A DNA stretch of 54,588 nucleotides from Gammaproteobacteria bacterium (GCA_050116575.1 JASFOJ010000014.1:1-54588); one strand, 5' to 3'; shown: positions 13,995 through 23,805, counted from the first letter of the stretch. The notes: generated by a model not told the origin, from the letters alone. Numbers and translations: made by a program.

Positions 13995-15761
13995 CTAACC
14001 GCTCTTTGCAGGACTACTGGCTTGTGGCGGACTGTCCTGTCCCGACCCCTGAATAACATTGGTCAGTCCATCGAGATCCTTGCCGTGCAATCCCAGCTCC
14101 GCCATCAGTGAATCAATGAGTGGCGCCTGGCTGCGATAACGCAGCGCGCTGTTCACCACCTGGTCGGCAAGATTGCCATTACCCTCCTCACCGGCTTTTC
14201 CGTTGCCGTTGCCATGACCGTTACTGCCATTCAGGCCATCAACCTGAAAGATCTTGATACCCTCAATTTGCTCCATGGGCTTGACACTTTCGCGAATGAT
14301 ATGCGGCAGCGTTTCCAATAGCGCCATACGAATTTGCATGGCAATTTGCTCCGCGGACAACACGTTTTGCGCTTCGTTAATGGCACGCTTACCTTCAGCT
14401 TCCACGGCATAGGTTTTCTCTGCCGCCTCGGCGCGCAGTTTTTCAGCCTCAGCAGCACCCTGCGCTTCGATACGGGCTTTGTCCGCGTCAGCGTTCGCCA
14501 GGATTTTGACTGATTCGGCCTGATCGTCTGCGGCCTGTTTTTCCGCTTCCGCGGCCACCTTGATTTTAATGGCTTCACGCTCGGCGTTTTTGCTGGCTTC
14601 GACCAACTCAACCGACTTGACCCGCTCAGCAACTTCTGTTTCGCGCACCGTGCGCACTTTCTCTTCTTCTCTTACCGCTGCTGCCCGGGCTTTGTCGGCT
14701 TCAGCTTGCGCCACGGATTGCTCCTTGGATTTTTCCGCAATAGCAATGGCACGGTCCTGTTCGGCCAGTTCAATGGCCTTGGCCTTGGCCACGTCTTTTT
14801 CCTTTACGACTCTGTCTTTTTCGATGCGTTCTTCTTCGACGGCACGTTCCGCCATGATCCGCGACATATCGACCTGGCGCACCGCATCGATGTCGGCCTG
14901 GTCGGCGGCTTGTTTTTTCTCCGCCTGTTCCCTCGCAATTTCTGATTGCTGCGCAGCGCGGCGCACTTCGACCTCGCGTTCCTGTTGCAGGCGCGCGTAT
15001 TCTTCTTCTTTTTTGATTTCCAGTGTCAGGCGTTCGGCTTCCAGGTTCTTCTGGGCCACCGCCACGTTGGTATCCTGTTCAATCTCGTTACGCTTCTTGC
15101 GGCGCTCTTCAATCTCCTCGGTGAGCTTGGTCAAACCTTCCGCGTCGAACGCGTTATCCGGATTGAAATATTCCTTTCCGGTTTGGTCTAATCCGGTCAG
15201 TGACACCGACTCCAGTTCCAATCCGTTTTTCAGCAAGTCTTCCGATACACTCTGTAAAACTTTTTGCACAAAACCCACCCGGTTTTCATGCAGTTCTTCC
15301 ATCGCCATTTGTGAGGCCACCGAACGCAAGGCATCGACAAACTTACCTTCCACCAACTGTTTCAGTTCTTCCGGGTGCAGGGTTTTCATGCCCAGGGTTT
15401 GCGCCGCATCCGCAATGGCCTCCACACTGGGTTGAACCCGCACGTAAAATTCGGCGCCCACATCCACGCGCATGCGGTCCCGGGTGATAAGTGCTTGCTC
15501 ACGGGCACGACGCACTTCAAGCCGCAGAGTGTTCATGTTCACCGGGATTATTTCATGGAGTACCGGAAAAACCAGCGCACCGCCATTCATAATAACTTTC
15601 TGGCCGCGAAACCCGGTGCGCACAAAGGACACTTCTTTCGAAGCCCGTTTATACAAGCGCGCCAAAATCAACCCGAGCAAGATCAACGCCACCATAATTA
15701 CGCCGGCAATCATGACGATGTCGCCTAAGCTCAAGACCTGGTTAAAATTTACATTGTTCAT
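13995..15761 (-). CDS. Flotillin-like SPFH/band-7 protein (YqiK family)
   Basis: N-terminal TM helix, an SPFH domain, and a long E/A/K-rich coiled-coil C-terminus typical of bacterial flotillins. Confidence 0.85.
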   Translation of the reverse strand: MNNVNFNQVLSLGDIVMIAGVIMVALILLGLILARLYKRASKEVSFVRTGFRGQKVIMNGGALVFPVLHEIIPVNMNTLRLEVRRAREQALITRDRMRVDVGAEFYVRVQPSVEAIADAAQTLGMKTLHPEELKQLVEGKFVDALRSVASQMAMEELHENRVGFVQKVLQSVSEDLLKNGLELESVSLTGLDQTGKEYFNPDNAFDAEGLTKLTEEIEERRKKRNEIEQDTNVAVAQKNLEAERLTLEIKKEEEYARLQQEREVEVRRAAQQSEIAREQAEKKQAADQADIDAVRQVDMSRIMAERAVEEERIEKDRVVKEKDVAKAKAIELAEQDRAIAIAEKSKEQSVAQAEADKARAAAVREEEKVRTVRETEVAERVKSVELVEASKNAEREAIKIKVAAEAEKQAADDQAESVKILANADADKARIEAQGAAEAEKLRAEAAEKTYAVEAEGKRAINEAQNVLSAEQIAMQIRMALLETLPHIIRESVKPMEQIEGIKIFQVDGLNGSNGHGNGNGKAGEEGNGNLADQVVNSALRYRSQAPLIDSLMAELGLHGKDLDGLTNVIQGSGQDSPPQASSPAKSG

Positions 15762-15765
15762 TTTG

Positions 15766-16446
15766 TTATTCCTCTGAAGGCTTGTCGATTAACACATCAT
15801 TGGTATTTCTTATTGCTAGAAAAACAGAGCTGGCTTTTTGAATCAGCAGCACCTGCTCTCCCTGTTCAAACACAACGTTGTCGCTATCCGGTTCCACCAT
15901 TATATAGTGCGACTTTCCGAAGCGGTCTTTTAAGCGCGCCTGGGCCGGGCTGCCTTGTTCGGCCTTGCCCAAAGTGATAAGCGCGATACGACCCACGAAT
16001 GAGTCCATGGAAACGGCTTCGGTTTCATCTTTTGGCATAAACCGCTCCAACAATCCGCCGAATAGACGCACCATGGGCGTTGCCAATACTACTGCGGGAA
16101 TCGATGCCAACCAGCCGGGCGCATACGCACCGATGATGCCATGGGTAACCGATTGTATACCCAGTCCCAGTAGCCCGAAGGCGGTAAGAAATATCACCAG
16201 CAACATCAGCACAGGAACACGCCCTACACGAAACCACCCGAGCAAGCGTGACAGTGCATTAGGCGTACGGATTTCCGAGCCATCGAGGTCCACATCGAAA
16301 TCCATATCCGGCAGCAGGGTATCCAGCACCGCTGAAATACCGGCGCCAAACACCGTAGTGATGCCTTCGAGCAGGGCAATACCGAACATCACCGCAAGTG
16401 CGACGGTAAACGGTAAATTTTCACTGGCTGTTATCAATTGCGTCAT
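15766..16446 (-). CDS. YqiJ/NfeD-like inner membrane protein
   Basis: Multi-TM N-terminus and a C-terminal OB-like segment; sits immediately upstream of the flotillin gene, as in yqiJK pairs. Confidence 0.65.
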   Translation of the reverse strand: MTQLITASENLPFTVALAVMFGIALLEGITTVFGAGISAVLDTLLPDMDFDVDLDGSEIRTPNALSRLLGWFRVGRVPVLMLLVIFLTAFGLLGLGIQSVTHGIIGAYAPGWLASIPAVVLATPMVRLFGGLLERFMPKDETEAVSMDSFVGRIALITLGKAEQGSPAQARLKDRFGKSHYIMVEPDSDNVVFEQGEQVLLIQKASSVFLAIRNTNDVLIDKPSEE

Positions 16447-16483: not shown

Positions 16484-17164
16484 TTACTTGGATTTGTTTT
16501 TAATCGCCGCCAATCGCTCCTGAATGCGATTGTTTCGCGCCAGATCATCCAACTCCGCTAACTTGGACGCAGTCTGTCGATCGGACGCACCCGTACTGCC
16601 CAGAACACCGGTAGCCTTTTCCACCACCCGGTCAAAGGCCGACGATGCTTTGTCGACGCGTGACTCGGCAGAACCGGCTGACGCAGCGCCTGCCCCTGGT
16701 GTGGTTGCCGATCCCGCGGCGGTTTTGGCCGCCCGGAAATGTTGCAGTTCTTCTTTCATTTCGCGCTTTTTGGCCTGCAACGCGGTGATGTACCCTTCCA
16801 GTTCTTTCTCCTGGGCAACACAATCCCCAATCGTCGCTTCCAACACCGGAATTTGTGCTTCAATGTCCAGTTGTTGTGAAATCGCCGCCTCGGCCAGATC
16901 TTCACGCGATTCGGCAACGGCCAGTTCTATTTTTTCCGTCAACGACTCGTGCTTTTTGTTTTCTTCCATAAGCCGAGTGTTAGCCAGATGTTTTTTCGCC
17001 ACCACACGGCCCAGTTCGGCACGTACCTCATCGATCACACTATCAATTTCCCTGATCGCTTCTTCCATGACCGTTTCCGGCACGGCGTTTTCAACCGCAT
17101 CGACGAGCGCATTCAAACTGCCGCTGATGATGCGTCCGACACGGCTTGTGATACTTTCATTCAT
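16484..17164 (-). CDS. pspA: PspA/IM30 family protein
   Basis: Coiled-coil PspA/Vipp1 signature at the N-terminus (MNESITSRVGRIISGSLNALVDAVENA...). Confidence 0.85.
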   Translation of the reverse strand: MNESITSRVGRIISGSLNALVDAVENAVPETVMEEAIREIDSVIDEVRAELGRVVAKKHLANTRLMEENKKHESLTEKIELAVAESREDLAEAAISQQLDIEAQIPVLEATIGDCVAQEKELEGYITALQAKKREMKEELQHFRAAKTAAGSATTPGAGAASAGSAESRVDKASSAFDRVVEKATGVLGSTGASDRQTASKLAELDDLARNNRIQERLAAIKNKSK

Positions 17165-17830: not shown

Positions 17831-18913
17831 CTATAGTGATGGTCGCGCACTGCCGTCCTTCTCTGCCTGATGCAGGATCGGCGTACTGAGGGCGATGCCA
17901 TCCTCAGCGGCCTGCAGCAGGATATATTCAATCAGGCGGTAGCGTGTGCGGAACAACTGACGCACGCCTTTGGTATAGAAGAACACGGCGTATTCCACCG
18001 AATAATCCCCGGCGGCGACGGTAAACACTTCGACGCCGTGCTGGGATTCCACTGTCACGTCCTGATCCTTTTTTGCCTGTTCAAACGCGCGTTCAAACAT
18101 CTTGCGCACCCGATTTGGCGCTACATCGTAGCCGATGTTGAAACTCAGTTTTTCCCGCAAACCACGGGCCGAGGCGAACTTCGACTGATTGTGAATTATC
18201 AGGTCCCGCAGTCTGGCGTTTCGAATCATCAGCCGATGGTTGTTAATGATATTTAGCAGTTCGGTATGAAAAAGCCGCGTTTTGTGTACCACGCCGATTT
18301 CCCGTTCTTCGGCCTCAAATTCAATCACGTCTCCGGTTTCGAGCATGCCGGAGTTCAACATAATCAATCCGCTGAATAAATCCGGGGCCCATACACCTTG
18401 AGTCAGGGCAAGGAAAACACCGATCACGCCCAGTACGCCCCCGGCTTCCAGCCAGCTTTCAAATCCCATGACCCGCACCACTGCGACAATGACCAGCACA
18501 CCGGCCAGTATCGTTAAAACAATACTGATCAGTCGTGAGTTGTAGGTCTCGACCACAAGCGCTTTGCCGTCGATTTCCTTCTGCTTCCCATAACGGTTAT
18601 GAATAAAAGTGTTGATGGCATGGATCACCACGAAACTCAAATACAGTATCGTGATGGTAATTAACAGCTTCATGCCCGGGCCCCGTTCACTGACAGGCAA
18701 CACCGTGTGGTAATACATAAAAGCGCCGATTATGGCGAGATTGAAGGCTCGAAAAATATGGACACGCAAATTGAAGCGCTTCTCGTCATCCGCTCCGTGA
18801 TACACAGCGCGCATAATACGCCGGGCTAATATCATTAAAAGAATGTTGATCGACACCACAACAATATCAATGGCGTCCAGGCGACTGAGAAAATCCAGGC
18901 TCTCCTCCAGCAC
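17831..18913 (-). CDS. Mechanosensitive ion channel, MscS family
   Basis: Three or more TM helices followed by an MscS beta-domain region (GDVIEFEAEEREIGVVHKTRLFHTELL...). Confidence 0.85.
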   Translation of the reverse strand: MLEESLDFLSRLDAIDIVVVSINILLMILARRIMRAVYHGADDEKRFNLRVHIFRAFNLAIIGAFMYYHTVLPVSERGPGMKLLITITILYLSFVVIHAINTFIHNRYGKQKEIDGKALVVETYNSRLISIVLTILAGVLVIVAVVRVMGFESWLEAGGVLGVIGVFLALTQGVWAPDLFSGLIMLNSGMLETGDVIEFEAEEREIGVVHKTRLFHTELLNIINNHRLMIRNARLRDLIIHNQSKFASARGLREKLSFNIGYDVAPNRVRKMFERAFEQAKKDQDVTVESQHGVEVFTVAAGDYSVEYAVFFYTKGVRQLFRTRYRLIEYILLQAAEDGIALSTPILHQAEKDGSARPSL

Positions 18914-19284
18914 GGTGGTATTGCTCCCAAGGCGTTGTGCGATGTCTAAGGTGGCTACGCAGTTTGTTCGTTGATTTTATGCCCTGCATGGGGCTCTGCT
19001 TTTTATGTATTATGCTATGTAAAACTATTCATTGCCATGACAAGGGGCGATTAAACATTAACCAATGTTGCACCCCGTGTCTGTTGCACGGCATGTGTCT
19101 ATTAGCAAATCAATGAGTTATCGGCGGCGCCATTGATGTCAAACCGACCCTGTCACTGACCCGGCGCTCCCGGCAATTGCAGATGACAGACCGCCGATGA
19201 TTTGCGATCATTTCTCGGGACGCCTGTCCTGCACCGGGACACGGCAACGCCACCGATATAATAAAAAGATAACAAGGAGCCAGG

Positions 19285-20001
19285 ATGTCGTTACCCCGCC
19301 GATACCAGCAGTGTATAGAGCGCCTTTCTCGACAACTACCTTCGCTATTGGGCGAAAATCTTTTTTCATGCGTATTGTACGGAAGCACGGTGCGGGGCCA
19401 CGTTATCGACGGCGTGTCGGATATCAATCTTTTGATTGTATTACAGCATTCAACGCCGGACGCACACAGCGCAATCGCAGACTGTCTGCAGGGCAACATA
19501 TATATCGATCCGTTTGTAATCGCGCGCCCAGGTATGGCACGCAGTTTTAGTGTCTTTGCCATTAAGTTTCGAAGTATCAAGCGCAACTATAAAGTACTGG
19601 CCGGCGAGGACCCCATTAAGGATTTTAGTGTCGCAGACGAGCGCGTACGCTTCCTCGCCGAGCAGGCGTTGCGCAACCTGAGACTGCGAAGTGTCAATAC
19701 CTTTATTCACCACCGTAAAAACACCGCCCGTTACACCCGGTTTTTGTTAAATACACATACGGCGCTGTTCACCTACGTGGGCGAGATCATGCGCCTTGCT
19801 GACCACGAGGTGCCGCGCGCTTACGCGGACCGAATTCCGATGATTGAAGAGTATTTCAGCATCGATACCCGAATCCTCCAAACGCTGGAAAATATTCAGG
19901 CCGATCCCGCCCAGGTCACCGCCAAGTCGATCGCCGGACTTCACCGCGATCTGTTTTCCTTTGTCGATGGCATTGTATGCTGGATGGAGCAAACCTGGTG
20001 A
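19285..20001 (+). CDS. Nucleotidyltransferase-domain protein
   Basis: Minimal NTase fold motif LYGSTVRGHVIDGVSDINLLIVL near the N-terminus; its stop overlaps the start of the next gene. Confidence 0.7.
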   Translation: MSLPRRYQQCIERLSRQLPSLLGENLFSCVLYGSTVRGHVIDGVSDINLLIVLQHSTPDAHSAIADCLQGNIYIDPFVIARPGMARSFSVFAIKFRSIKRNYKVLAGEDPIKDFSVADERVRFLAEQALRNLRLRSVNTFIHHRKNTARYTRFLLNTHTALFTYVGEIMRLADHEVPRAYADRIPMIEEYFSIDTRILQTLENIQADPAQVTAKSIAGLHRDLFSFVDGIVCWMEQTW

Positions 20002-20636
20002 GCACTCAAATTATCCGATGCCCGATCTGTCTGTTGTCGCAACCTGTCAAAAGCGACGTCTCGCCGGATAAAATCCTGCATTGTGGTAACTGTCGCCGGG
20101 ATTTTGCGGTGAAAAACGGACTGCCGTTAAAAGAAAATATAATCCCTGGTACAGCGCCCGCAACAACAGCCGCCTCCTCGATAACAGGTATCAGTAACAT
20201 GGAACCGGCGACAACGCGAAACGCCGTGGTGACATGGATACTTGGTTTGATTATCGGACTTGTGGTTATCAAAACGTCACGATCTTATGTCGCCCCACTC
20301 GATGGACCGCATTTTTTAGTCTTTTACTTACTGTTTTTTGTTGGCGTGTGGGCGTCACTCGCCGTTATGCGAAATTTATGGGAAGACTCGGTACACGTCA
20401 CCTTGATCGCGTTATTTGTCTTTGAAGCAATCGGCCTTTTTCGTTTCCTTGATGCCAGTGCGGCGGGCATGCACAAGTTCGGCTTTTTGTTCATGATGAT
20501 GGCGATCGGAGCGATATTGCTGTTCACGCGCTATGATCATTCCCGCAACAGCGATGAGTACGGCTCGAGTTGCAGTGGCTGCAGCAGTTGCAGCGGCTGC
20601 GGCAGTGGCGGAGGTTGTGGCGGATGCGGCGATTAG
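19998..20636 (+). CDS. Zinc-ribbon plus 4-TM membrane protein with C-terminal Cys-repeat tail ending in Asp (candidate MNIO substrate); start GTG 19998 or ATG 19977
   Basis: N-terminal CPIC...CGNC ribbon, hydrophobic helices, and the tail SSCSGCSSCSGCGSGGGCGGCGD. There is a GGAG 8 nt before the GTG, and the GTGA overlaps the upstream stop. Confidence 0.55.
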   Translation: MSTQIIRCPICLLSQPVKSDVSPDKILHCGNCRRDFAVKNGLPLKENIIPGTAPATTAASSITGISNMEPATTRNAVVTWILGLIIGLVVIKTSRSYVAPLDGPHFLVFYLLFFVGVWASLAVMRNLWEDSVHVTLIALFVFEAIGLFRFLDASAAGMHKFGFLFMMMAIGAILLFTRYDHSRNSDEYGSSCSGCSSCSGCGSGGGCGGCGD

Positions 20637-21412
20637 GGGTGGGGTATCGTCAGCCGTTGGCCCACTGGATCAACACTCATCCGGCGCAACTCAATTGCCT
20701 GGAAATCACCGCAGAACATTTTTTTGATGATGCGTCAAAACTGGCGGCATTAGGGTCATATTATGATTTATTCGTCCACGGTTTGGGTCTATCGCTGGGC
20801 ACACCCGGTCCACTTGACAAGTCGTATTTAGATCGCTTTAAGACGGTCTGTGAGATAGCCCAGCCATTGTGGATAAGTGAACACATTGCGTTTACGCGAG
20901 CGGCTGACATCGATCTCGGTCATCTTAACCCGATACCCTACACACCGGATACACTGGCTTACTTTGTCGAACACGCCCTGGAACTCAAGGCACATTGCCA
21001 ACGGCCACTGCTACTGGAGAACGTCACCTCGCACATCGCAATCCCCAGCCCGTTATCGGAGACCGCTTTTATCAATGCGCTATGTCAACAGGCCGGCTGT
21101 GGCTTATTGCTCGATGTCACCAATTTACTGGTGAATAGCCGCAATCATGGCTATTCGCCTACGCAGTGGTTACGGGAAATCCATCCAGATTTCATCAAGC
21201 AATTGCATATTGTTGGATATAGCCAAAGCAATGGTACCTTTTTTGACTCTCATGCGAACAATATTCAACAGGACCTGTATCAACTAACCCGGCAGGTCAT
21301 TGATTACTCACAGGTGGATTCCATCATTATTGAACGTGACCATAACTTTCCATCTACTCTACAGCTGGAACAGGAACTTGCTAACCTGGAGCGTTGTTTT
21401 GACATCCATTGA
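20624..21412 (+). CDS. DUF692 / multinuclear non-heme iron oxidase (MNIO, MbnB/TglH family)
   Basis: GVGYRQPLAHWI (GlGlR motif), EHIAFTR...DLGHLNPIPYT, LLENVTSHI, GCGLLLDVTNLLVNSRNHGY and IVGYSQ all match the DUF692 TIM-barrel family; the ORF-track start at 20570 is trimmed to the Met just before the GlGlR motif. Confidence 0.88.
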   Translation: MRRLGVGYRQPLAHWINTHPAQLNCLEITAEHFFDDASKLAALGSYYDLFVHGLGLSLGTPGPLDKSYLDRFKTVCEIAQPLWISEHIAFTRAADIDLGHLNPIPYTPDTLAYFVEHALELKAHCQRPLLLENVTSHIAIPSPLSETAFINALCQQAGCGLLLDVTNLLVNSRNHGYSPTQWLREIHPDFIKQLHIVGYSQSNGTFFDSHANNIQQDLYQLTRQVIDYSQVDSIIIERDHNFPSTLQLEQELANLERCFDIH

Positions 21413-21920
21413 CTTTGTGACCGCCCTGGCAAAACTGCTGTCTCAGCCTGAACTGCAAAGGCTTTTTACCCAGGCACCGGAACAAGTAGCCGACAGGTTA
21501 AACCTCCTGGATGAACATCGCGCCCTGTTTGTCGCGTTGGTCCCCGAACAAGTCACCGCCCAGGCAAACCTGCTAACCACAAAAAGGTTAAAGGAAGCCC
21601 GGCGGCTTTTACCACAGACCTTTAAGCTGCTCGGCTCCAATGGGACAGCGTATTTCAATTCGTATGCGAGCACGTATTGGCCCCAAAGCCACCGGCGCCA
21701 CCTCGAAGATGCCGTTGAATTTTGCACCTACTTGAATAGCCACCACTACCCGGTCAACCATGGCGAAATAAATTACCTGAAATTTTTGATGAGCAGGCGC
21801 CGCGTTGGCCTGGCGTTGGCTAAAGACGCGATGGTCCAGGCATACCATTTTCCCGCCATACAGTTGTTTTACCGATACAAGGGAACAATGGGACAATGGC
21901 GCCTGTACTTGAAGGGATAA
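21396..21920 (+). CDS. MNIO partner protein candidate (DUF2063/RRE-like?); start TTG/GTG near 21396-21414
   Basis: About 170 aa; immediately downstream of and overlapping the MNIO gene, in the position of MbnC/TglI/BufC-type partners. Its sequence similarity to those families cannot be verified by eye. Confidence 0.45.
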   Translation, partial: VLTSIDFVTALAKLLSQPELQRLFTQAPEQVADRLNLLDEHRALFVALVPEQVTAQANLLTTKRLKEARRLLPQTFKLLGSNGTAYFNSYASTYWPQSHRRHLEDAVEFCTYLNSHHYPVNHGEINYLKFLMSRRRVGLALAKDAMVQAYHFPAIQLFYRYKGTMGQWRLYLKG

Positions 21921-22077: not shown

Positions 22078-22782
22078 TCACCGTACGCTATACCCTCTTC
22101 CTTCCAGACAGGCTTTCATGGCGCGTTGATAGTCTTCCCGCAGCTGGGTTAGTTCCTGGACCGGCAAATTGCCGGGTGGCTGTGTAGGATCATAGCCGGA
22201 CTGATCTACTCCCCATTTGTGACAGGCATAACGATCGTCCGCCTGTTGTTGTTGGCTTTGGCCCTGTTTAGGATAGATAAACAATTCATCAGCCATATAT
22301 TCCGGCGTTATCTGGCTTTCTTCGGGGGGTGGTGATGTGACTTGATAACCATTAAGATCCGGCCGCCACATATAATAAACGTCATTGGCATAATAGTACG
22401 GCGTTCCGTGCAACCAGATCGTTGTGTAAAACGGCGGCAACATGGGTACCACTATACCCAGGGGCGGCCGCACGACCACATAGCTTGGTCCTGAGGGGAG
22501 GTACCATACGCCACTAATATAAAAGTAACTTTTGTTACGATAATGTATTGGACGACGCCGTTCGGGCAATACTTTCACCTTATGGCCGCTACGCGGATAG
22601 CGTCGGTCATGATGGTAACGCTTATCCAGCTTATAATGTGGATGAGATTTTTGCCGATGTTCATTGCGGTCACCCCTGTCACGCCGGTCCCGGTCACCGC
22701 GATCAGCGGAGGCTGTAACAGATACGCCAACCATCGCAAAGGCCAAAAATAAAACCGCTGGTTTTAGAAAATTTTTTTTCAT
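22078..22782 (-). CDS. Secreted protein with basic repeat region and conserved C-terminal CHxWG...DP...YQRAMxACLEGRGYxVR domain
   Basis: Sec signal peptide; the C-terminal ~55 aa are shared with the adjacent paralog. Confidence 0.55.
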   Translation of the reverse strand: MKKNFLKPAVLFLAFAMVGVSVTASADRGDRDRRDRGDRNEHRQKSHPHYKLDKRYHHDRRYPRSGHKVKVLPERRRPIHYRNKSYFYISGVWYLPSGPSYVVVRPPLGIVVPMLPPFYTTIWLHGTPYYYANDVYYMWRPDLNGYQVTSPPPEESQITPEYMADELFIYPKQGQSQQQQADDRYACHKWGVDQSGYDPTQPPGNLPVQELTQLREDYQRAMKACLEGRGYSVR

Positions 22783-22839
22783 CGCCGGATGTCCTTAAAT
22801 TGCTGAATACCACCAATCCAGTTATTCGAAAACACTATT

Positions 22840-23436
22840 TTATCGAACCGTATACCCACGGCCTTCCAGGCACGCTGTCATAGCGCGCTGATAATCTCGC
22901 GATTGTTTTTCCAACCGGGCATAGCGTTGGGCGTCCTTGGCATCGTAGTGCTGCTGAATCTGTTCCGCTTGCTGCTGGCGTGCCGCATCAGATGCCGCGC
23001 CCAGCATCGCGCCAGTAAGCGCACCAAACACCATGCCGAATCCTCGATCGTGACGAGATGACATCATGGATCCCACGATAGCGCCGCCAACCGCACCCGC
23101 TGCGGCGTCGGACCCAGGTGGCGCCACAGGTGTCACTTCAACACGTTGGTGCGGTGCCAGTTGCGCCTGACCGGGATCAAAACCGGATTGTTTAACCGCC
23201 CATAAATAACACTCGTACCGATCCCGTTCCTGTTGCGCTTCGGATTGGCCTTTGGTGGGATAAAAATAAACCACCGTACTGGGCAATGGCGGGTTGGGGG
23301 CAGGACGTTGCTTAACCATATATCCGGGGGGTGCACAACCAACCAGGGAAACACCGAAGATAGCAACAACAAAAAACAACCATAGCGAGGTCAATTGTGA
23401 CCTGCTCCAATGACTGCTATTTACCGACTCATTGTT
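22840..23436 (-). CDS. Lipoprotein with glycine-zipper segment and the same C-terminal domain as the 22078 gene
   Basis: Lipobox LVGC; a GAVGGAIVGSMM glycine zipper; the C-terminus ERDRYECYLWAVKQSGFDP...YQRAMTACLEGRGYTVR is paralogous to the neighbouring gene. Confidence 0.55.
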   Translation of the reverse strand, partial: NNESVNSSHWSRSQLTSLWLFFVVAIFGVSLVGCAPPGYMVKQRPAPNPPLPSTVVYFYPTKGQSEAQQERDRYECYLWAVKQSGFDPGQAQLAPHQRVEVTPVAPPGSDAAAGAVGGAIVGSMMSSRHDRGFGMVFGALTGAMLGAASDAARQQQAEQIQQHYDAKDAQRYARLEKQSRDYQRAMTACLEGRGYTVR

Positions 23437-23805
23437 CATTGAAATAATTTCCATTGAATGATACGACCATATTGGTGATACAGTATTAACGTTAGTGCCT
23501 ACTATTTCCGTCGGAACAAATACGATATTCTCAACTGCAAATAATCAACCTTGCTATCGATTAACCAGTCAATAATATATTTTTATAGTGCTCGATTAAA
23601 AAATTATATAATCGACACCGGTAATTGCCATGATTAAGATCAAATGACCGAAGAATGGGTTTCGCGTCATGTTCACATCTATACCGTGTATTGACACCCA
23701 GCTTGTGCCACGGACGAATTAATGGATAATTGATTGGACCTTAACTGACCCCAGATATTCGTTGAAATACTGGACCCTGTTTTCTACCTAGTATTATTCT
23801 AATTT

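Follow-up and report, generated by a model that had tools for sequence, protein, structure and literature searches.

Oxidative enzymes that depend on multinuclear nonheme iron (MNIOs; DUF692) and are of the BufB/HvfB type turn Cys residues in Cys-Gly contexts into 5-thiooxazoles (PMC13097082, PMC12538549), and the radical S-adenosylmethionine (SAM) enzyme SbtM is reported to make a 5-thiooxazole from Cys of its peptide (PMC13097082, PMC12538549). The bufferins or oxazolins (BufA/BufB/BufC; HvfA/HvfB/HvfC) are Sec-exported soluble peptides or proteins whose MNIOs work with PME-type 1 (DUF2063) partners, often alongside DoxX. In the membrane proteins of family TIGR04222, a Cys-containing Ser/Gly-rich C-terminal segment has been proposed, without experiment, as an MNIO substrate (PMC12452194, Antoine et al. 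2025). Here, we describe an operon of four overlapping genes, g1 to g4, at positions 19285 to 21920 of a 54,588-nucleotide (nt) stretch of DNA from a Gammaproteobacteria bacterium (JASFOJ010000014.1; referred to as the window). In this operon, a small membrane protein with a Cys-rich tail (g2) is encoded between a nucleotidyltransferase (NTase)-fold protein (g1) and an MNIO (g3) followed by its partner protein (g4). We favor, with moderate confidence, the interpretation that the operon post-translationally modifies the tail of its own g2 protein by means of the MNIO and its partner and thereby creates a membrane-tethered, metal-binding tail.

The operon resembles the TIGR04222 systems in that a polytopic membrane protein with an unstructured, Ser/Gly-rich, Cys-studded C terminus is encoded beside an MNIO of the bufferin kind and a partner that resembles DUF2063 but has no Pfam signature, and in that the membrane protein is proposed as a protein substrate, not a peptide. 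Nevertheless, this common architecture of several transmembrane (TM) segments and a Cys-interspersed Ser/Gly C terminus near an MNIO constitutes a resemblance only. Membership of g2 in TIGR04222 was rejected, as no match to this family was obtained for the window protein at an E value of ≤10 or for any of 10 distant relatives at ≤0.01. TIGR04222 was also absent among the 25 families listed (of 42 matched) for 36 g2 homologues, although a single weak match elsewhere is possible. Unlike the TIGR04222 proteins, g2 is much smaller, has no large extracytoplasmic domain, ends in a nearly invariant CGGCG, and is always paired with g1. Furthermore, its hosts are mostly uncultured Gammaproteobacteria and Verrucomicrobiota, whereas those of TIGR04222 are Actinomycetota. 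With the bufferins, the operon shares the nearest MNIOs, Cys-Gly motifs, and an expected copper-binding 5-thiooxazole; however, g2 has no signal peptide and is integral to the membrane, g4 is a type 2 partner, and the MNIO scores under both equivalog cutoffs.

A previous reading of the window from its sequence alone (the sequence-only reading) had considered the architecture a candidate for an undescribed one. This holds for the association with an NTase, which appears to be unreported, but membrane-anchored MNIO substrates had already been proposed for TIGR04222 (PMC12452194), so that novelty in kind cannot be claimed for this aspect. The same paper (PMC12452194) mentions no nucleotidyltransferase, contains "radical SAM" in its reference list only, and does not include NTP_transf_2 among the domains listed as co-occurring with DUF692. 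No relevant combination of an MNIO with a nucleotidyltransferase was found in the literature searched. The g2 family, its link to g1, and the alternation of maturases described below thus appear to be undescribed. The g2 family is probably different from the "adjamnio-I" group of PMC12452194: the Cluster_I list of that study consists mostly of RefSeq (WP_) entries, the g2 family is dominated by metagenome-assembled genomes (MAGs), and the obtainable g2 accessions are not in its lists.

All four open reading frames (ORFs) lie on the + strand. The g1 gene (19285-20001; 238 amino acids) carries an AAGGAG sequence 5 nt upstream of its ATG. It is followed by g2 (19998-20636; 212 amino acids), whose GTG start codon at 19998 overlaps the g1 stop codon in a GTGA sequence; this start is supported by the homologues, which open with (M/V)STQIIRCP. 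The ATG of g3 (20624-21412; 262 amino acids) lies 9 nt after a GGAGG sequence and within a 13-nt overlap with g2. Finally, the start codon of g4 (21399-21920; 173 amino acids) is TTG, with 14 nt of the gene overlapping g3, and an identical 173-amino-acid product is present in the Joint Genome Institute gene call (P0164). The ORFs and the GTGA and 13-nt overlaps were hence present as the sequence-only reading had described them. Since the genes on either side (17831-18913 and 22078-22782) are both located on the − strand, the four genes form a compact operon, and their overlaps imply translational coupling.

The candidate modification site is the C-terminal tail of g2 (20565-20633, + strand), which comprises the 23 residues SSCSGCSSCSGCGSGGGCGGCGD and had been quoted exactly in the sequence-only reading. 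A word-index search yielded 40 homologues of g2, 36 of which were aligned. The most conserved stretch of these 36 proteins is the extreme C terminus, C..G.GGGCGGCG, with C198 and G202 to G211 being invariant. Similarly, CGGCG followed by 0 to 5 residues forms the C-terminal end in the 52 loci that were fetched. To avoid circularity, a profile of the g2 membrane core only, with the tail left out, was searched against 1.84 billion representative proteins and retrieved 256 representative g2 relatives at an E value of ≤1 × 10−3. Among the 138 new relatives found with this tail-less profile, 105 end in CGGCG plus 0 to 6 residues and 16 bear looser Cys/Gly tails, while most of the remaining ones are truncated or frameshifted sequences. 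The tails contain 3 to 7 Cys residues per last 40 residues, spaced by 3 to 6 positions, and 56% Gly. They end just past the last Cys with Gly-Gly, Gly-Ser, or Gly-Asp, and the final residue is never Cys. In the window's g2 gene, 18 bp are tandemly duplicated in the proximal tail region (20568-20606), whereas the distal CGGCG is fixed. Collectively, these data revealed that g2 belongs to a real protein family in which the tail is conserved, and that the tail is not chance low complexity.

The genomic neighborhood provided the strongest argument for the tail as a substrate. Using g1 as bait, we assembled 60 loci from GTDB species representatives as well as metagenome loci; a genome scan with the close g2 set produced pattern matches, none of which was confirmed as a relative, and named genomes were reached via g1 only. 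Architectures were counted in 50 nonredundant loci with a close g1. In 33 of them, g1 and g2 are followed by an MNIO, nearly always together with g4. In 11 others, the g1-g2 pair is followed by, or faces, a radical SAM/SPASM enzyme, and both the MNIO and g4 are missing. The rest consisted of loci cut by contig ends (3 of 50), orphan g1 genes (2 of 50), and a degraded locus (1 of 50). The g1-g2-MNIO-g4 order is kept in Gammaproteobacteria, Verrucomicrobiota, Planctomycetota, and others, so that the gene order noted in the sequence-only reading is co-conserved across several phyla. In a rough neighbor-joining tree of g1, the radical SAM-type loci occupy at least four separate positions among the MNIO-type loci, which indicates that the maturase was exchanged repeatedly while g1 and g2 stayed paired.

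About one-fifth of the loci thus use a SPASM radical SAM enzyme whose best or second-best NCBIfam model is that of the SbtM/SbtMa system. The best models of these enzymes are SbtM (TIGR04082) and the ACGX-system radical SAM protein in a near tie, with SbtM ranking first or second for five enzymes. In contrast to SbtM, they lack the N-terminal ~200 residues, as they align to positions ~200 to 516 of the SbtM model only, and no link to selenium was seen. The occurrence of two unrelated classes of peptide-modifying enzymes beside the same g1-g2 pair argues that g2, and specifically its tail, is their common substrate. In addition, the alternation between MNIO and radical SAM enzymes points to a Cys-derived heterocycle, formed by Cys-to-thiooxazole conversion, as the common chemistry.

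The identification of g3 as an MNIO in the sequence-only reading was confirmed by a hidden Markov model search, in which g3 matched PF05114 with 234.1 bits (cutoff of 25; E value of 2.2 × 10−69) over profile positions 2 to 261 of 263. A multinuclear iron site and O2-dependent oxidation would be expected from this membership. The nearest NCBIfam models were BufB (NF050167; 205.7 bits versus a cutoff of 310) and HvfB (NF003818; 171.8 versus 360), and because both scores lie under the equivalog cutoffs, g3 is nearest to BufB/HvfB but not a member of either. Its best sequence matches in the PDB were 3BWW, MbnB, and TglH. As for g4, the sequence-only reading had placed it in the position of the MNIO partner and had found it unlike DUF2063. 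Indeed, g4 has no DUF2063 (PF09836) signature and gave no Pfam match at E values of ≤1 or ≤10; by fold, however, it is DUF2063-like and matches NGO1945 (3DEE), TglI, and MbnC, which represent all three kinds of partner known for MNIOs. These matches came from fold comparison alone, since a search of the PDB sequences with a g4 profile gave no match. PF26136 (SCO6045_C) occurs in the precomputed annotation of g4 and its homologues, whereas the local Pfam copy gave no PF26136 match. Moreover, two g4 orthologues, PTY03421.1 (Verrucomicrobia bacterium LW23) and MBI3898015.1 (a gammaproteobacterial MAG), are included in the PME-type 2 list of PMC12452194, and the MNIOs paired with them, PTY03422.1 and MBI3898016.1, are included in the matching enzyme list of the same paper. 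Given these catalogued orthologues, the position after the MNIO, and the DUF2063-like fold, g4 can be assigned to the PME-type 2 class of MNIO partners, for which a name already exists.

The body of g2 matched no Pfam or NCBIfam family. Apart from the tail, residues G103, F106, R125, R149, G157, and M168 are invariant in the 36 homologues. An N-terminal zinc ribbon (20019-20093, + strand; R-C8-P-x-C11 ... C29-G-N-C32) has Cys residues that are invariant or nearly so in the long forms of g2, and relatives match Zn_ribbon_4/5 weakly. It precedes a hydrophobic core (20220-20540, + strand) with four predicted TM segments and the loop D-A-S-A-A-G-M-H-K-F. The Kyte-Doolittle hydropathy peaks lie at residues 75 to 91, 101 to 117, 132 to 148, and 161 to 177, in agreement with the protein of ~210 residues with a zinc ribbon and about four TM helices that the sequence-only reading had outlined. 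The third segment, whose hydrophobicity is weak in the short forms, holds E143, G146, and R149, the Glu being nearly invariant and the Arg invariant. The family is rare, with sizes of ~120 to 380 amino acids overall, and comprises two forms. The long form (~200 to 250 amino acids, mostly from Proteobacteria) contains the zinc ribbon, and the short form (~140 amino acids, from Verrucomicrobiota) is devoid of both the ribbon and the first TM segment. The strong conservation of the core and its invariant charged intramembrane residues suggest that the membrane core also has its own function.

If the zinc ribbon faces the cytoplasm and the protein crosses the membrane four times, the tail would more likely be cytoplasmic too, on the same side as the soluble g1, g3, and g4 proteins and the radical SAM enzymes. 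The short form, with its acidic N terminus and three segments, is compatible with this orientation. The tails of TIGR04222 proteins are predicted to be periplasmic (PMC12452194). The favored topology of g2 would put the loop D-[AG]-S-A-x-G-M-H-[KR]-[FW], which is strongly conserved, in the periplasm, and the Met and His residues of this loop are compatible with putative metal binding.

Two further loci of the g2 family should be mentioned. A gammaproteobacterial MAG (L014, 5693-7008) encodes two tandem g2 paralogues, both Cys/Gly tailed, between g1 and the MNIO. In a Nitrospina MAG (L058, 2714-5705), the genes follow the order tail protein, radical SAM enzyme, g1, and the tail protein of 363 amino acids matches DUF2207_C with a subthreshold score of 28.6 bits. 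This match hints that membrane proteins of the DUF2207 type are distantly linked with the g2 core; nevertheless, kinship of g2 with DUF2207_C was rejected, since the Nitrospina protein was its only source and the 25 families that were listed for the 36 homologues do not include it.

In the mechanism that we propose, g2 would act as a small polytopic inner-membrane protein that offers its Gly/Ser/Cys tail ending in CGGCG as the substrate. The O2-dependent g3, together with g4, which would presumably dock the substrate, would oxidize Cys residues of the tail, most likely to 5-thiooxazoles or isomeric oxazolone-thioamides. The product would be a membrane-tethered tail with multiple sites for a soft metal, probably copper, and it would stay on its anchor without release of a peptide. 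In other lineages, a radical SAM/SPASM enzyme would take the place of g3 and g4 and would be expected to perform equivalent chemistry without O2. The g1 protein would bind a nucleotide and/or the tail and help to present or regulate g2; nucleotidyl transfer is possible but doubtful.

Several points weigh against this mechanism. Besides the subcutoff scores of g3, the radical SAM enzymes score 120 to 155 bits, far under the SbtM cutoff of 350, and are nearly tied with other SPASM families, and the chemistry could therefore differ from that of the named enzymes. No conserved metal homeostasis genes were found nearby, the neighborhoods being variable among the loci examined, and the metal-binding (metallophore) function is putative. 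A topology with three or two TM segments and an external tail may also apply, given the weak third segment of the short forms. Finally, the proposed mechanism leaves the role of g1 unexplained.

MNIO-partner systems usually yield peptides that are made by ribosomes and modified after translation (RiPPs; PMC12452194), and the sequence-only reading had labeled the operon "RiPP-like." The operon could accordingly represent a true RiPP pathway, in which g2 serves as a giant membrane-anchored leader and cleavage of the modified tail sets free a small metallophore or bioactive peptide derived from Cys. In line with this possibility, the proximal tail region, which is rich in Ser and Cys, varies and grows by tandem duplication like RiPP cores. 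However, neither a short precursor nor a protease nor an exporter, including a peptidase-containing ABC transporter, was conserved in the ~50 loci, and the strong conservation of the membrane core with its charged intramembrane residues is at odds with a mere leader. In addition, g2 differs from a canonical RiPP precursor, which is a short leader-core peptide subject to leader removal and export. We therefore regard a RiPP pathway as unlikely, and post-translational modification of a protein fits the operon better than the RiPP-like label does. The sequence-only reading had itself named three outcomes that would speak against its proposal, namely, a failing DUF692 call, an unconserved tail, and a separate short precursor; all three were looked for, and none was found.

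Poly-Cys/Gly tails can also bind metals unmodified. In many cases, TIGR04222 tail proteins are found with no accompanying MNIO (PMC12452194). The tail of g2 might hence be an unmodified metal- or Fe-S-binding Cys cluster, with the MNIO or radical SAM enzyme acting on a different peptide or on a small molecule or the adjacency of the genes being nonfunctional. Opposed to this are the gene overlaps and the translational coupling that they imply, the presence of the tail protein essentially always beside one of two peptide-modifying enzymes, and the failure to find any alternative substrate gene conserved in the loci. An unmodified tail consequently seems to us quite improbable.

The remaining two explanations assign an active role to g1, whose annotation as a nucleotidyltransferase in the sequence-only reading was only partly upheld. 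The AlphaFold2 model of g1 (predicted local distance difference test score of 94) shows two domains, an N-terminal polymerase-beta NTase fold and a C-terminal helical bundle. Foldseek comparison with the PDB retrieved AAD(9), ANT(4′), AadA, and HalB (E values of 1 × 10−6 to 1 × 10−3, TM scores of 0.46 to 0.65, probability of 1.0), and PDB entry 7AE9 was also among the fold matches. The two-domain architecture and the G-S motif are shared with ANT(3″)(9)/AadA, ANT(4′), AAD(9), and HalB. In g1, the motif reads YGS-x10-SD-I-N, in which Y-G33-S34 is invariant. However, the catalytic D-x-[DE] pair is absent and replaced by S45-D46-I-N48; N48 shows no variation among 25 close or 9 distant homologues and aligns with the second Asp of AadA in a comparison of the profile with the AadA N terminus. 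Most members, though not all, have Asp or Glu at the third acidic position, and the Pfam NTP_transf_2 score of 15.7 bits falls below the cutoff of 21. Compared with the aminoglycoside NTases and HalB, g1 shows 10 to 17% identity, has Asn for the second metal-binding Asp, and lies in the context of a Gly-rich-tailed membrane protein instead of one of resistance or defense. The fold and the G-S motif thus stand, while catalytic activity of g1 is doubtful and was possibly lost or altered. An invariant cluster of residues (K94, R100, D109, E126, Q127, R130, N131, R133, and R135) indicates a conserved, putative binding site. As the g1 gene adjoins g2 in nearly all loci, whichever maturase is present, its partner is g2 and not the MNIO; that it helps to present the tail is speculation.

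In one of these explanations, the chemistry would concern the C terminus itself: g1 would nucleotidylate the tail at a Ser hydroxyl or, in a ThiS/MoaD-like manner, at the terminal carboxylate, and the MNIO would perform a TglH-like excision or another reaction that forms no heterocycle. The tails ending in Gly-Gly, Gly-Ser, or Gly-Asp right after the last Cys would suit such chemistry, MNIOs catalyze varied reactions (PMC12452194), and MNT-type NTases AMPylate proteins, with 7AE9 being among the fold matches of g1. On the other hand, Cys is never the terminal residue, the length after the last Cys varies from 0 to 5 residues, g1 carries D-x-N, and g3 is nearest to BufB/HvfB rather than to TglH/ApyH. 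Moreover, no adenylation of carboxylates is known for polymerase-beta-type NTases. We give this chemistry little credence.

The other explanation is derived from Hailong (HalA/HalB), whose two genes encode an NTase and an ion channel that spans the membrane (PMC13434031), and in which the active NTase synthesizes oligo-dA and the channel is DNA gated. That g1 and g2 form a similar regulatory or defense pair, with the NTase-fold protein controlling a small channel whose gating or sensor tail is matured by the MNIO or radical SAM enzyme, agrees with the HalB match of the g1 model (TM scores of 0.53 to 0.59), the invariant pairing of g1 and g2 with interchangeable maturases, and the conserved intramembrane Glu and Arg of g2, but it is very unlikely, because the second catalytic Asp, which HalB requires, is missing from g1 with its HalB-like fold, aminoglycoside NTases are better fold matches than HalB, the loci lie outside defense islands, and PADLOC (2023, a version that may predate Hailong models) gave only weak N-terminal matches of g1 to the PDC-S09 candidate and cyclase models and none for g2.

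Modification of the g2 tail thus remains our preferred interpretation, and it would have several implications. Research on MNIOs is advancing rapidly, but their action on true proteins has so far been a hypothesis, which the g2 family, with its four genes and a target of just 23 residues, would allow to be tested in a compact setting. If a radical SAM enzyme indeed stands in for MNIO and partner on one substrate, this would link two routes to thiooxazoles and allow the chemistry to be predicted beforehand; if true, two unrelated enzyme superfamilies would be interchangeable on the same substrate. Should the tail bind copper or another soft metal, it would represent a new way of handling metals at the membrane in uncultured sulfur-oxidizing Gammaproteobacteria and Verrucomicrobiota. 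The NTase-like companion provides a way into the uncharacterized "SD-I-N" branch of the nucleotidyltransferase fold.

Distant relatives of g1 with the GS...SD-I-N signature were observed in Gemmatimonadota and Spirochaetota (L059, 4084-6250; L062, 4872-7172; L065, 5004-7281), where they adjoin LemA and TPM-domain (YgcG-like) membrane proteins whose C termini form tails rich in Gly and Phe. This hints that the g1-type branch of NTases is generally tied to membrane proteins with Gly-rich C-terminal tails. A still broader proposal is tentative, and we would sooner doubt than accept it: the g2 proteins would constitute a new class of membrane proteins whose cytoplasmic poly-thiooxazole tail is made either with O2, by an MNIO and the partner protein, or without O2, by a radical SAM enzyme resembling SbtM, and depends on a D-x-N NTase-fold protein for its biogenesis or function, the latter protein being tied more broadly to Gly-rich-tailed membrane proteins, including TPM/YgcG-LemA modules.

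Verrucomicrobia bacterium LW23 (L053, QAZA01000011.1) was the sole carrier whose record is not labeled as a MAG and could serve as a cultured carrier for genetics. Its GenBank proteins include g1 (PTY03423.1), the MNIO, and the partner. However, the record contains no protein matching the translated g2 ORF between g1 and the MNIO, and the locus tags jump from DB346_05940 to DB346_05950. Such unannotated g2 genes may help to explain why neighborhood surveys missed the family. Two MAG contigs labeled Klebsiella (L020 and L022) contain g1 alone, with neither a tail protein nor a maturase; they are GC rich and Verrucomicrobia-like and were probably misbinned. At another locus (L055), g2 and the MNIO are present as remnants only, which suggests that the system is decaying in some lineages.

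The closest named relative of the window locus was found in an uncultured gammaproteobacterial MAG (L013; 83% identity in g1). Upstream of g1, a consensus scan gave a weak sigma-70-like promoter match (19183-19211, + strand; 9 of 12 positions), which is tentative, as sigma-70-like sites are no more numerous in the region than expected from shuffled sequences. Between the upstream gene and g1 lies a Cys-rich ORF of 59 amino acids with a GTG start and ~10 Cys residues (18937-19116, + strand). As an alternative precursor, this ORF was rejected because its protein matches are split over two frames in L013; the region shows 68% nucleotide identity in L013 and nothing alike in the other loci, and the ORF is probably not coding. 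Farther upstream, the − strand carries a membrane stress-type cluster encoding flotillin/SPFH (13995-15761), YqiJ (15766-16446), and PspA/IM30 (16484-17164), which is not conserved beside the operon in other loci. Downstream of the operon, the − strand encodes two adjoining paralogues (22078-23454; DUF6515, glycine-zipper 2TM domain) with the common C-terminal motif Y-Q-R-A-M-x-A-C-L-E-G-R-G-Y-[ST]-V-R.

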